This document shows positions 3,912 to 56,838 of a stretch of 64,000 nt of DNA, one piece after another (positions within the stretch are counted from its first letter, which is position 1; every line of letters starts with the position of its first letter). This stretch comes from Candidatus Woesearchaeota archaeon (GTDB taxonomy: Archaea; Nanobdellota; Nanobdellia; Pacearchaeales; GW2011-AR1), in assembly GCA_964575515.1 (NCBI GenBank), contig CAZNQS010000001.1, positions 5,403 to 69,402 of the forward strand, in the 5' to 3' direction. Below the pieces are notes generated by a model. It saw only the letters and a list, made by a program, of their open reading frames with translations. It was not told where the DNA came from and did no database searches. Made by a program: the position numbers and the translations under genes.

Positions 3912-4159
3912 TAACCATTCAACTCCTTTGAAATGCGTTTAATTCTTTCTGCTCTTTCTTTTCTGTGCTTTTCTCTCAATATTTTTATATTATTTTCTAA
4001 TTCTTCTCCTGCTTCTTTGCTTAATATGCCAAAAAAATCACTTAATTTTCTCTTCCCAGTTATTTCTAAGATTATCTCAGAAAAACTTTCGTTTTCCTTT
4101 CTCAAATTAGCCAATCTTTTATATGCTTCTTCAGTTATTGAAATATTCTTGGTTGCCAT
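3911..4159 (-). CDS. vapB: VapB-type antitoxin (small coiled-coil protein)
   Basis: MATKNISITEEAYKRLANLRKENESFSEIIL.. The ATG at 4159 was chosen because a TATA box and a palindrome lie directly upstream. The longer track ORF to 4258 reads through the promoter. Confidence 0.7.
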   Translation of the reverse strand: MATKNISITEEAYKRLANLRKENESFSEIILEITGKRKLSDFFGILSKEAGEELENNIKILREKHRKERAERIKRISKELNG

Positions 4160-30659: not shown

Positions 30660-30759
30660 GCCTCTATAGCTCAGCCGGTTAGAGCGCAGCATTGGTAAGT
30701 TGCAAAAAACTGAATATCCAAATATGCTGAGGTCCCGAGTTCGATTCTCGGTAGAGGCT
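30660..30759 (+). tRNA. tRNA-Thr(GGU) with a 26-nt canonical (37/38) intron at 30698-30723
   Basis: Acceptor GCCTCTA/TAGAGGC, D arm GCTC-AGCCGGTTA-GAGC, anticodon stem CAGCA/TGCTG with loop TTGGTA|intron|A, and T arm CCGAG-TTCGATT-CTCGG. The TTGG/CCAA pairing fits a BHB central helix. Confidence 0.85.
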
Positions 30760-54696: not shown

Positions 54697-55353
54697 ATGC
54701 AAAATAAAAGAGGAATGTTCATAGTCTTTGAAGGAATAGACGGCAGCGGTAAAAATACTCAGTTAATAAAACTTATAGAACATATAGAAAAATTAGACAA
54801 ATATCAGGATATTATAAAGACGCATGAGCCATGGAAGAATAAAGAAATAAAGAAAAAAATCCAAGAGGACAAGGAAGCTTATTCTGATGGAATCCAAATG
54901 GCAAAATTATATGTAAAAGACAGAATCGCCCACTCCGAAGAAATAAAAAATCAATTAGATAAAATCTATTTTGTCTTATGCGACAGATACAAAATGTCAA
55001 CTTGCGCTTATCAATGGACACAAGGCGTCGATTTATACAGATTGTTAAAAATGCATGAAAATGAAAAAATCATCCAGCCTGATTTAACGCTTTTCATTGA
55101 TATTTCCGCTGACATTGCATTGAAAAGAGTCTCAAAAAGAAATGATTCAAAAGAGAAATTTGAAGATTGGAAATTTCAGAAAGATCTTGTCAGCCATTAT
55201 CATAGTTTAATAGAGAGGCAAGATTGTAAAAATCTGTTTGGAAAAGTAATTAGTGTAAACGGGAGGGGTTCTATAGATGAAGTAGCGGAAAAAGTTAGGA
55301 ATGTGTTCTATCCTTTCTATAAAACCTGGAAAGATAAAAATCAAAACTCTTAA
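54697..55353 (+). CDS. tmk: thymidylate kinase
   Basis: P-loop FIVFEGIDGSGKNTQ, a DRY-like CDRY, and the lid region. Confidence 0.88.
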   Translation: MQNKRGMFIVFEGIDGSGKNTQLIKLIEHIEKLDKYQDIIKTHEPWKNKEIKKKIQEDKEAYSDGIQMAKLYVKDRIAHSEEIKNQLDKIYFVLCDRYKMSTCAYQWTQGVDLYRLLKMHENEKIIQPDLTLFIDISADIALKRVSKRNDSKEKFEDWKFQKDLVSHYHSLIERQDCKNLFGKVISVNGRGSIDEVAEKVRNVFYPFYKTWKDKNQNS

Positions 55354-55378
55354 AAGCCTAAATTTCTAATCTCTTTAA

Positions 55379-55405
55379 GCCCGGATGGGACAATGGTACT
55401 CCGCG
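55379..55405 (+). other. tRNA 5' piece (acceptor strand, 3-bp D arm, nt 26)
   Basis: GCCCGGA-TG-GGA-CAATGGTAC-TCC-G. It is 7/7 complementary to TCCGGGC at 56274-56280. A TATA-like ttaaaag lies at -29 to -23. Confidence 0.6.
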
Positions 55406-55444
55406 TTATAGAAAAATATAAATACAATTCCTATATAACTTTAT

Positions 55445-56125
55445 ATGGATCTATCTAAAAGAAATAGAAAGGTCGCCATATCTCGTTGGAAAAAACATCT
55501 AATATATAATCAGAGTAGAATATATTCAGGTAAAGACGTGGAAGTTATGAAGGCCGCGCTATGTGGTTTTCTTGCAGGAGACGGAAGCGTACAAGTAAGA
55601 AAAGGAAAGTCTTTTTCACATTATCAACTAGATTTTTTCCCGGATGATATCCGTATGCTAAAAAAGTATCTAAGTTTAATGAAGAGAGTGTATAAAACAA
55701 TACCTTCTATTACTAGAAGAGACAATGTCTTTGCAGCCAGGTTATTTCAGAAATTTATAGTATTGGATTTGCTTAAAATATCTAAGTTTGGTGTATATAA
55801 TTGGAATATCCCCAATTGGATTATGAAAAATGATCTAAACAAAAAAGCCTGGCTTCGAGCATTTTTTTCTGCAGAAGGTTATGTAAATCAAAAATATATT
55901 AAAACGCAAAGCGTTAATCTTATAGGGATAAGTAAAGTGTCTCATTTATTAGATAGTATGGATATATCTCATCGTGTTTATTACTATAAACCAAAAAACA
56001 CAAATCACTCAAAAGTAGCTTTATTATTTATAAGCCCATTTAAGTCTAGAATAAAATTCTATAAAGAAATTGGTTTTTGGCATTTAAAAAAAGAAAGAAA
56101 ACTAAGAGAAACGTTAGGTTTATAA
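55445..56125 (+). CDS. double-motif LAGLIDADG homing endonuclease-like protein
   Basis: LCGFLAGDGSV and LRAFFSAEGYV. It has its own TATA-like aaaatataaata about 25 nt upstream. Confidence 0.8.
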   Translation: MDLSKRNRKVAISRWKKHLIYNQSRIYSGKDVEVMKAALCGFLAGDGSVQVRKGKSFSHYQLDFFPDDIRMLKKYLSLMKRVYKTIPSITRRDNVFAARLFQKFIVLDLLKISKFGVYNWNIPNWIMKNDLNKKAWLRAFFSAEGYVNQKYIKTQSVNLIGISKVSHLLDSMDISHRVYYYKPKNTNHSKVALLFISPFKSRIKFYKEIGFWHLKKERKLRETLGL

Positions 56126-56149
56126 TCATTTTATTTGATAAATTAATAA

Positions 56150-56231
56150 GCTGATGTTGAGCAGTGGTAGCTCGCTTGCTTGGAGAGCAAGTTTCCTTAC
56201 AGATATGCAGGTTCGATTCCTGCCATCAGCG
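56150..56231 (+). tRNA. class II tRNA, probably tRNA-Ser(GGA)
   Basis: Acceptor GCTGATG/CATCAGC with G73, 3-bp D stem GAG/CTC, anticodon arm CTTGC-TTGGAGA-GCAAG, a 15-nt variable region (poorly paired), and T arm GCAGG-TTCGATT-CCTGC. Confidence 0.62.
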
Positions 56232-56235
56232 TATA

Positions 56236-56281
56236 ACTCGCTTTCCGCAAGGATTTCCAGGTTCGATTCCTGGTCCGGGCG
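56236..56281 (+). other. tRNA 3' piece (D-stem 3' strand, variable hairpin, T arm, acceptor strand) lacking an anticodon arm
   Basis: ACTC-G-C-TTTCC-GCAA-GGATTT-CCAGG-TTCGATT-CCTGG-TCCGGGC-G. It aligns to the preceding tRNA with exactly the anticodon arm missing. Confidence 0.6.
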
Positions 56282-56302
56282 TTAATCTTAAGGCTCAATT
56301 AA

Positions 56303-56635
56303 TTAGTTTTTCAGAAAAGAACAAACCTCATTTACAATTTCATCAAATTTTTCTTGCTTTAATGATCCAACTTTATATTTTATCAACGATTTATCAATAG
56401 AAGCAATTTTATCTATTCTAATGTAACTCTCCATTTTAAGACTTCCTTGTCTAAAATCTTCTTTCTTTATCTGAATCTCAACTAGTTTTTCATATGAGGC
56501 GCCGGTTATTTGTAAAACGATAACATCTTCACCTTTAGGAACTTTCAAGATCAAAACAGGCCTTCTTTTTGACTTTTTTAAATTAGAATAAGGAAACTCA
56601 ATTACTACAATATCTCTCCTTACAAATCCTTCCAC
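56303..56635 (-). CDS. mazF: MazF/PemK-family endoribonuclease toxin
   Basis: RRDIVVIEFPYSN..KRRPVLIL.. Confidence 0.85.
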   Translation of the reverse strand: MEGFVRRDIVVIEFPYSNLKKSKRRPVLILKVPKGEDVIVLQITGASYEKLVEIQIKKEDFRQGSLKMESYIRIDKIASIDKSLIKYKVGSLKQEKFDEIVNEVCSFLKN

Positions 56636-56838
56636 GCTTCATCCTCTTCTTTATTAAGCCAGTTTTTAGCAAGAGATTTTTCAGATAAAATTGTCCATTC
56701 GGGAATAGATTTTTTAATAATTATTTCATCATCTTTTTTAATCACAATTAGTTTGTCTCCTTCTTTTATGTCTTTTCTCATGTCAAGAGGAATAACAATC
56801 TGGCCCCTCGAACTCATTTTAGTTGTATCAATTTGCAT
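56620..56838 (-). CDS. mazE: AbrB/MazE/SpoVT-family antitoxin
   Basis: SSRGQIVIPLDMRKDIKEGDKLIV. It overlaps mazF by 16 nt. Confidence 0.8.
   Translation of the reverse strand: MQIDTTKMSSRGQIVIPLDMRKDIKEGDKLIVIKKDDEIIIKKSIPEWTILSEKSLAKNWLNKEEDEAWKDL

Follow-up and report, generated by a model that had tools for sequence, protein, structure and literature searches.

The window analysed here is a 64,000-nt stretch of contig CAZNQS010000001.1 (assembly GCA_964575515.1) from a Candidatus Woesearchaeota archaeon. Our subject lies at positions 55379–56281, where a gene for a LAGLIDADG homing endonuclease and a complete tRNA-Ser(GGA) gene are enclosed by two pieces of another tRNA-Ser gene. The window is AT-rich and of DPANN type, and the best-matching homologues of its proteins come from metagenome-assembled genomes (MAGs) of Woese-, Pace- and Nanoarchaeota. 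Read from left to right, the locus consists of a tRNA-Ser 5′ piece, the LAGLIDADG gene, the complete tRNA-Ser(GGA) and a tRNA-Ser 3′ piece, with the tmk gene ending just upstream, at 55353. The insert between the two pieces, referred to below as the cassette, measures 830 nt (55406–56235); about 150 nt of it are non-coding, 82 of them being the nested tRNA. A preliminary description, made from the letters of the sequence, had reported a tRNA 5′ part at 55379–55405, a tRNA 3′ part at 56236–56281 with a variable hairpin, T arm, acceptor strand TCCGGGC and G73, outer acceptor strands that pair at seven of seven positions, and an insert with a TATA box, a 226-aa double-motif LAGLIDADG open reading frame (ORF) and a full tRNA at 56150–56231; all of these are present. 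The features are as follows, with related loci designated by L numbers and L045 carrying the uninterrupted allele described in the next section.

55350–55356, + strand: resident tRNA-Ser TATA-like box (TTAAAAG), placed 22 nt before the 5′ relic and overlapping the tmk stop codon; its promoter role is predicted from sequence.
55379–55405, + strand: 5′ relic of the resident tRNA-Ser(GGA) gene, GCCCGGATGGGACAATGGTACTCCGCG, with the 5′ strand of the acceptor stem, the D arm, G26, C27 and G28; 24 of 27 positions as in L045.
55406–55415, + strand: left end of the insert, TTATAGAAAA, standing where L045 has AGTTTGGAGA (positions 29–38).
55416–55424, + strand: putative TATA box of the endonuclease gene, ATATAAATA, 20 nt upstream of the ATG.
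55445–56125, + strand: LAGLIDADG homing endonuclease gene, 226 aa, single-chain and double-motif (PF14528, fold, invariant D46 and E144).
56119–56125, + strand: putative TATA box of the cassette tRNA, TTTATAA, within the last endonuclease codons (L-G-L-stop) and 24 nt upstream of the tRNA.
56150–56231, + strand: complete cassette tRNA-Ser(GGA) (ARAGORN; Rfam tRNA model, 60 bits).
56232–56235, + strand: 4-nt spacer TATA, right end of the insert (comparable spacers measure 2 nt in L044 and 5 nt in L041).
56236–56281, + strand: 3′ relic of the resident tRNA-Ser(GGA) gene, with ACTCG as the 3′ strand of the anticodon stem, an extra C (56241), variable arm, T arm, acceptor strand TCCGGGC and G73.

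The resident tRNA-Ser gene and its uninterrupted allele

Empty sites were sought by collecting homologues of the window Tmk and inspecting their contigs. In L045/L046, whose Tmk is 70% identical to that of the window and which share its thyX-tmk order and the promoter-like sequence AAAACTCTTAAAAGC, tmk is directly followed by an intact, stand-alone tRNA-Ser(GGA) gene, GCCCGGATGGCACAATGGTAATGCG-CGAGT-TTGGAGA-ACTCG-TTTCCGCAAGGATTTCCAGGTTCGATTCCTGGTCCGGGCG, and there is no endonuclease gene. AAAACTCTTAAAAGC precedes the intact tRNA of L045 just as it precedes the 5′ relic of the window. Besides the 24 of 27 identities of the 5′ piece, in which the D-stem differences are compensatory (G11/C24 in the window versus C11/G24 in L045), the 3′ piece is identical to L045 at 45 of 45 positions once the extra C is removed; agreement of this extent goes far beyond what chance would give. 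The only segment of the L045 tRNA that is absent from the window is AGTTTGGAGA, positions 29–38, and it is these 10 nt alone that the insert replaces. With AGTTTGGAGA put back into the outer gene, ARAGORN calls a normal tRNA-Ser(GGA), and the restored gene (GCCCGGATGGGACAATGGTACTCCGCGAGTTTGGAGAACTCGTTTCC..., the sequence type shared with L045) is 96% identical to that of L045. Because this uninterrupted syntenic allele matches both pieces, the outer gene is, on this comparison, the resident tmk-linked tRNA-Ser(GGA) split by an 830-nt insertion, and not a mysterious split tRNA. The preliminary description had proposed a search for such an allele in related genomes; it exists at the syntenic site in L045/L046, and L047 and L048 (Tmk 67% and 65% identical) also have an intact tRNA-Ser(GGA) without an endonuclease. 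We consider it likely that the region is a tmk-linked tRNA-Ser(GGA) gene invaded by a splicing-independent homing cassette, which breaks its target and supplies a replacement.

The insertion and its boundaries are established by these comparisons, with the left junction at tRNA positions 25–28 and the right junction at 38/39. What remains of the outer anticodon stem is C27, G28 and A39–G43 (ACTCG, 56236–56240), followed by the extra C at 56241, so the earlier statement that the gene has no anticodon arm and lacks 16–17 nt gives way to a replacement of 10 nt (29–38). The 3′ relic retains a perfect variable hairpin, TCC-GCAA-GGA. The left end of the insert (55406–55415) looks like a degenerate anticodon loop and also resembles a B recognition element (BRE) of a promoter, a role predicted from sequence. 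An insertion at 37/38, with a relic that spans the whole anticodon loop, was considered and rejected, as comparison with L045 and L048 shows that the resident sequence stops at 25–28 and that the loop-like ATAGAAA is cassette sequence, not resident sequence. An inverted repeat had also been noted at the junctions; its 6 perfect base pairs are matched by about 8% of random position pairs at equal spacing, which is not significant, and we discarded it as a structural or recombination signal. A duplicated ACTC(C)GC, noted at the same place, does exist, but its two copies are the end of the D stem and the 3′ strand of the anticodon stem.

If the outer pieces were instead exons of a functional tRNA, the 830-nt insert would be a giant archaeal intron removed by EndA, perhaps of the epsilon2 type; the preliminary description had raised this in the form of an ORF-bearing intron with non-canonical excision. 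Such a reading could point to the position of the insertion in the anticodon arm, beside the canonical intron site, to the outer acceptor stem, T arm and variable arm, which are still perfect, to the resident-type promoter sequence still found upstream, and to the existence of broad-specificity EndA enzymes in DPANN archaea (PMC3239211, PMC12397907). It could also point to ARAGORN, which in low-threshold overlay mode reports an outer tRNA-Ser(AGA) with an 813-nt intron and calls a tRNA-Ser(AGA) again when 55416–56235 is excised. We regard the overlay call as a tolerance artefact: it comes with A34 and no bulge-helix-bulge (BHB) motif, it is contradicted by the intact allele, and it borrows the 3′ end of the nested tRNA as an anticodon stem. 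To our knowledge, A34 tRNAs are not used in archaea.

A BHB scan, for which the intron of the window tRNA-Thr (H4, h5, h′2) served as positive control and was recovered, detected no motif leading from the outer 5′ piece to the outer 3′ piece (5540x–5541x to 5623x), and relaxed settings gave chance-level matches only. Precise excision of the insert leaves an anticodon stem of 2–3 bp with an AGA or aberrant loop and no normal GGA loop, the resident 10 nt with the GGA anticodon being gone relative to L045. In nearly all homologous loci the 3′ exon is missing, and in many the 5′ piece is truncated. Neither a junction motif nor a functional ligation product of an archaeal BHB intron was found, and we hold a giant intron to be very improbable. 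The tRNA-Thr(GGT) gene of the control, at 30660–30759, has a canonical 26-nt BHB intron after position 37; it scores 58.9 bits with Rfam and is missed by default ARAGORN.

Composite or alternative splicing that shares the nested anticodon arm had been put forward as well. Here the outer 5′ piece, the anticodon segment of the nested tRNA and the outer 3′ piece would mature, in a manner resembling tri-split tRNAs, into a second tRNA-Ser, and the introns at about positions 29 and 37/38 in deeper relatives do delimit a 29–37 mini-exon that coincides with the segment missing from the outer gene. However, scans from the outer 5′ piece to the nested tRNA and from the nested tRNA to the outer 3′ piece gave only chance-level matches, with no BHB between the 5′ piece and nested 28/29 or between nested 37/38 and the 3′ piece. 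Nested positions 29–31 (TGC) pair with outer 39–41 (ACT) at one of three positions, for a total of three of the five stem pairs, the nested tRNA of the window is intronless, and the arrangement is not conserved in relatives. We give this reading almost no credence.

Genuine split tRNA halves are conserved and essential, and have complementary leaders that form a BHB. Split tRNAs of Nanoarchaeum equitans and Caldivirga maquilingensis and the multi-intron tRNAs of Thermoproteales resemble the locus in that they are broken in or near the anticodon arm and belong to lineages with broad-specificity EndA (split, tri-split and multi-intron archaeal tRNA genes are reviewed in PMC4090602). In the window, by contrast, neither conserved halves nor a leader–trailer BHB was found; a 10-nt stretch with the anticodon is gone, and relatives have no such halves or only decayed ones. 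Homing endonuclease genes also sit in the anticodon region of some bacterial tRNA genes, where group I introns house them (reviewed in PMC3984707), whereas an Rfam search of 55200–56500 (E ≤ 10) returned the nested tRNA only, with no group I ribozyme core, no group I or II intron and no other known RNA.

Archaeal integrative elements classically insert at tRNA genes and are bordered by partial copies of them, which speaks for an integrase-type element or provirus at the tRNA gene; a mis-assembly across tRNA repeats may be named alongside it. However, we found no integrase and no att repeats: the LAGLIDADG ORF is the only ORF of gene-like length in the 830-nt insert, and the insert is flanked by complementary halves of one tRNA gene, not by direct repeats. 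Nor was any relative found among the 2.9 million viral contigs of IMG/VR, and we rejected a viral origin on this ground. An assembly artefact at 55379–56281 is unlikely because the two tRNAs share only about 14 nt and because the architecture recurs in independent assemblies (L041/L042, from two samples, and L044). Integration by an integrase and mis-assembly, taken together, are hardly credible explanations of the locus.

Directly downstream of the 3′ relic, on the − strand at 56303–56838, lies another small selfish module that adjoins the homing cassette, a pair of a MazF/PemK-like toxin (110 aa) and a MazE/AbrB-like antitoxin (72 aa) whose genes overlap by 16 nt. L045/L046 have other genes in its place.

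The endonuclease, the nested tRNA and their predicted promoters

The ORF at 55445–56125 matches Pfam LAGLIDADG_3 (PF14528; E 8.6e-12) and carries two motifs, LCGFLAGDGSV with D46 and WLRAFFSAEGYV with E144, the two acidic residues being invariant in 23 homologues. An AlphaFold2 model with a predicted local distance difference test score (pLDDT) of 93.6 and a predicted template modelling score (pTM) of 0.87 has two domains, and together with Foldseek it identifies the pseudo-dimeric alpha-beta-beta-alpha-beta-beta-alpha fold. The top Foldseek matches are PI-PfuI (E 1e-12) and I-DmoI (E 2e-10, template modelling score up to ~0.8 on the target), and WhiA is also among the matches. A profile search against the PDB found 1dq3 (E 2e-13), and a single-sequence search of the same database gave no match. 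Comparison thus shows catalytic motifs and fold to be intact. The family is large, with at least 137 homologues at 90% clustering and 92 clusters at 50% identity (E ≤ 1e-30), and nearly all loci have an intact ORF of 223–234 aa. In one 454-aa representative, P0203, the endonuclease profile matches two stretches; this protein may have arisen by tandem duplication or by fusion of two members of the family.

The distribution of the endonuclease is, judged by sequence similarity, discordant with that of the host. Its nearest homologue (67% identity, L006) occurs in a genome whose Tmk is only 41% identical to that of the window, whereas the nearest Tmk relatives (65–71%) have no endonuclease. Patchiness of this kind is apparent at the homologous site itself, which is empty in L045/L046, L047 and L048, occupied in the window and endonuclease-less in L044.

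Comparison shows the nested tRNA to be foreign to the locus: it shares 89% of its sequence with the endonuclease-linked tRNA of another lineage, L004, and 84% with that of L008, but only 67–71% with the resident type. It is presumably the functional tRNA-Ser(GGA) copy. Its variable arm (56192–56207), TTCC-TTAC-AGAT, contains a C·A mismatch, while relatives have TTCC-TTCG-GGAT (L008) or TCC-GCAA-GGA (L004), and the functional copy may be slightly impaired by the mismatch.

Both genes of the cassette have promoter-like sequences of their own. AGAAAA-ATATAAATA precedes the ORF, and a TATA box at 20 nt from the ATG would imply a leaderless endonuclease mRNA. In the 13 loci that were parsed by regular expression, a conserved TATA-like box is found 29–32 nt upstream, counted from the loop end to the ATG. 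At the other end of the ORF, the L-G-L-stop codons read TTAGGTTTATAA and form a TATA box upstream of the nested tRNA, which would accordingly be driven from a promoter within the endonuclease ORF. The motif TT(A/G)(G/A)(G/A)TTTATAA closes the ORF in about 20 loci, 24–28 nt before the 5′ end of the tRNA, and the C-terminus L-G/D/N-L-stop (TTAGGTTTATAA) doubles as the predicted tRNA TATA box at 56114–56125 of the window and in L001, L004, L006, L008, L009, L012, L016, L017, L019, L020, L022–L024, L026, L030, L040, L041 and L043. In L029, L033 and L035, the ORF extends into the tRNA, the stop codon being the TAA of the D loop.

Related loci in other DPANN archaea

A survey of homologues yielded 35 distinct endonuclease loci, and comparison shows that the arrangement of a tRNA 5′ relic, the endonuclease and a complete tRNA-Ser recurs, in about 30 DPANN loci. 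A tRNA-Ser gene begins 0–30 nt after the ORF stop, or overlaps it, in all 31 loci with enough downstream sequence. ARAGORN confirmed the linked tRNA in 24 loci, directly or after BHB-guided in-silico splicing, and 23 of these have the anticodon GGA and one has CGA. The combination of BHB-guided splicing with ARAGORN was used in place of the Rfam tRNA model, which, on 19 loci, misses multi-intron tRNA-Ser; splicing was ambiguous for L012, L016, L029 and L033, which were read by eye.

Upstream of the endonuclease, a tRNA 5′ relic is present in about 20 loci and always has the same end point, after which come (T)AATAGAAA and a TATA box. In at least 20 homologous loci, (T)AATAGAAA sits 5 nt after G26. 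Over its first 22–27 nt, each full-length relic in L001, L006 and L008 (GCCCACATGGCACAATGGTACTGCG) equals the intact empty-site tRNA of L048; cassette sequence follows. A clear 3′ half is much rarer, being found in only 2 of the 35 endonuclease loci, in the endonuclease-less L044 and, as a decayed trace, in L004. The preliminary description had named, as part of what would speak against it, outer pieces that are non-conserved, decaying remnants in related genomes. This largely holds, the 3′ remnant being usually absent, except that a block of the 5′ remnant is unexpectedly conserved.

L041/L042, known from two independent assemblies of two samples, provide a second independent case of a complete tRNA followed by a 3′ relic. 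L044, whose Tmk is 71% identical to that of the window, has no endonuclease and retains GGTTTATAA together with a tRNA of the cassette type and a 3′ relic of the resident type that ends in TCCGGGCG; it looks like the state after loss of the endonuclease. As a set, the loci look like stages of a homing life cycle, namely the empty site, the freshly invaded site (the window), loss of the 3′ relic and loss of the endonuclease. They occupy different genomic contexts, being linked to tmk, SRP54/FtsY or DHFR.

Several linked tRNAs contain introns. One or two BHB introns (at about position 29 and at 37/38) occur in the linked tRNA-Ser of L014, L015, L017, L020, L023, L024, L026–L028, L030, L034 and L035, which belong to deeper-branching clades. 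L016 and L022 have D-arm introns, and L016 has a T-loop intron as well. The position-29 intron coincides almost exactly with the end of the resident sequence in the 5′ relics. In L015, a second intron-containing tRNA (Rfam, 4040–4153) lies about 320 nt downstream of the linked tRNA-Ser and about 426 nt after the ORF stop, with a Ser-like T arm and acceptor end (TATCCTGGTTCGAATCCGGGCGGTGGCG).

A different upstream motif, CCACTGGACA(T) or CCACA(G/A)GACA, stands ahead of the promoter in L021, L025, L030, L031 and L032, about 40–70 nt upstream of the ATG, and also in L011, L017 and L020. It resembles the anticodon-loop region gACTGGAAAt.

Two related metagenomic contigs contain tRNA-Ser(UGA) genes (L037, 714–808; L039, 8000–8083) whose D arm, variable arm and T arm are identical to those of the tRNA-Ser(GGA) type. 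Differences between these two isoacceptors are almost confined to the acceptor and anticodon stems, and therefore tRNA-Ser(UGA) and tRNA-Ser(GGA) could both be targets, or could be recombining partners.

Proposed mechanism and relation to known systems

Of the three readings in the preliminary description, the last, in which a homing element disrupts a tRNA-Ser gene and itself delivers the replacement tRNA, is the one supported by the empty site, the foreign tRNA, the catalytic motifs and the absence of the endonuclease from the nearest Tmk relatives. In the sequence of events that we infer, which includes the cleavage specificity, the repair route, the use of the promoters and the escape of the cassette tRNA from cutting, the cassette would comprise the LAGLIDADG gene with a BRE/TATA promoter of its own, and a complete foreign tRNA-Ser(GGA) with a second TATA box formed by the final codons of the endonuclease gene. 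The endonuclease would cut uninterrupted tRNA-Ser(GGA) genes within the region from the D arm to the anticodon arm, and a cassette-bearing allele would act as the repair template, with homology supplied by the flanking tRNA halves. The resident gene would be left as a 5′ relic (positions 1–28) and a 3′ relic (39–76), and the cassette tRNA would take over its function. Since the cassette carries a complete replacement tRNA, insertion would be harmless without splicing. The host would from then on depend on a tRNA transcribed from a promoter within the endonuclease gene, the relics would decay, with the 3′ relic usually lost, and the endonuclease gene might itself be lost, as in L044.

Several points weigh against this proposal. 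The target site is deduced from sequence, and cleavage, homing and expression are predictions. The L040-linked tRNA and the tRNA of the endonuclease-less L044 carry the exact target anticodon arm (CGAGT TTGGAGA ACTCG), which leaves self-immunity without an explanation unless recognition also involves the D loop. A relic block of about 22 nt (positions 16/17–38; TGGTACTGCG-5 nt-ATAGAAA, with the candidate operator form TGGTACTCCG-CGTTA-TAGAAAA) is conserved across clades, even where the remaining relic is gone, and therefore fits poorly with a neutral, freely decaying remnant. In L017 and L020 this block is placed downstream of the TATA box and upstream of the ATG. It may represent a retained half-site that provides a homology arm, or else an operator or a BRE. 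The endonuclease is conserved more strongly (50–67%) than the neighbouring Tmk (28–41%) and is almost never degenerate, which could reflect a host function. The linked tRNAs of L001 and L043 have the ‘resident’ acceptor GCCCGGA, so cassette and resident types are not cleanly separable. Finally, the lineage of the window itself is represented by one genome.

It may be asked whether the LAGLIDADG protein has ceased to be a selfish homing enzyme, or never was one, and is a domesticated, vertically inherited host factor tied to tRNA-Ser(GGA), for instance a regulator binding the 22-nt block, the split in the window being a one-off rearrangement. Consistent with this, the ORF is intact and of near-constant length (226 aa) in more than 100 homologues, it is conserved above the neighbouring Tmk, the 22-nt block abuts the endonuclease promoter, and LAGLIDADG folds have already been co-opted as DNA-binding regulators, as in WhiA, seen among the Foldseek matches. 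However, both catalytic acidic residues are invariant, the protein is patchily distributed (four of the five nearest Tmk relatives have no endonuclease and the fifth is a deletion derivative), endonuclease and host similarities are discordant, the split arose independently at least three times (window, L041 and L044), and the loci lie in different genomic contexts, tmk-linked, SRP54/FtsY and DHFR-linked. We consider domestication improbable and retain the homing cassette as our explanation.

The D loops of the linked tRNAs bear on how a cassette tRNA might escape cutting. We compared L001, L004, L008, L040, L041, L043, L044 and the nested tRNA of the window (56150–56231) with L038, L045, L047, L048 and the 5′ relics. 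The linked tRNAs have the D loop CAG(T/C)GG (G15), often with GGTTA, whereas the empty-site tRNAs and the relics all have CAATGGTA; G15 is found in 8 of 9 endonuclease-linked tRNAs of the window's clade versus 0 of 11 empty-site tRNAs and relics (p = 7e-5, not corrected for phylogeny). G15 may be an immunity substitution. A second group of linked tRNAs retains GGTACTGCGCA, with a BHB intron right after it and a further intron at 37/38. This suggests that altered D loops or introns may confer immunity to a site that spans positions 16–39.

As a tentative extension, which we think more likely wrong than right, the endonuclease family would shape the structure of tRNA-Ser(GGA) genes across DPANN archaea through a site spanning positions ~16–39. 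One escape route may be the D-loop substitution G15, and another the BHB intron at the junction (~position 29), accompanied in deeper clades by the canonical 37/38 intron; the conserved relic block of 22 nt may be a retained half-site that acts as a homology arm, as an operator for the enzyme's own promoter, or as both. If true, the cassettes would be a live example of selfish endonucleases that make tRNA fragments, select for tRNA introns and replace tRNA genes horizontally. Such a process has been postulated by authors debating how split and intron-containing tRNA genes arose.

A close parallel to the homing cassette is provided by the mitochondrial ‘gene hybrids’ of Allomyces macrogynus (atp6) and Glomus (atp6, atp9, cox2 and nad3), in which mobile endonuclease ORFs carry a replacement gene part (PMC3630166). 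As in the window, a LAGLIDADG ORF travels with foreign target-gene sequence, in the hybrids a copy of part of the gene, the native part, displaced and in the hybrids an adjoining unexpressed relic, groups with close relatives, and an intron or intein is unnecessary; an endonuclease ORF beside a foreign copy of the target gene, with a native relic that groups with close relatives, is what we find here. The cassette differs in that its target is a tRNA gene in a cellular archaeal chromosome, in that it delivers a whole gene with its own predicted promoter inside the ORF instead of an in-frame C-terminal segment, and in that relics lie on both sides and the family is conserved across many DPANN lineages. 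SegB of phage T4 (PMC2330249) is likewise encoded outside an intron, targets a tRNA gene and spreads together with neighbouring tRNA genes (intronless homing). However, SegB is a GIY-YIG enzyme of a phage that recognises the T-loop region, replaces the homologous region and leaves no split tRNA halves, whereas the present system pairs a LAGLIDADG enzyme of a cellular archaeon with junctions in the D arm and anticodon arm and with a physically split target.

I-DmoI, from a BHB intron in 23S rRNA, and PI-PfuI are the nearest relatives in sequence and among solved structures, and they are similarly archaeal, single-chain, two-motif enzymes with a conserved stable-RNA or essential-gene target. They rely on RNA or protein splicing, whereas the cassette has no recognisable BHB intron and provides a second gene copy instead, and the sequence identity between the endonucleases is only about 20–24%. 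The element belongs to the homing endonuclease elements and is not a new splicing mechanism. Our literature search, whose coverage did not extend to most subscription journals, found no description of such an arrangement.

A homing endonuclease normally avoids the harm of cutting into an essential gene by residing in a self-splicing intron or an intein. The widespread archaeal family described here appears to solve the problem of insertion harm in another way, by breaking a tRNA gene and delivering a whole replacement. If confirmed, this would be a natural route to horizontal tRNA gene replacement and to orphan tRNA halves in archaea, would bear on the debates about the origin of split and intron-bearing tRNA genes, and would be a case of ‘addiction’, in which a host relies on a tRNA driven from within a selfish gene. 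It would also add a new clade of monomeric meganucleases that are compact (226 aa) and whose candidate target is defined and highly conserved, and would serve as a warning for annotation, as tRNA 5′ or 3′ fragments beside LAGLIDADG genes in DPANN MAGs would be relics and not split tRNAs.

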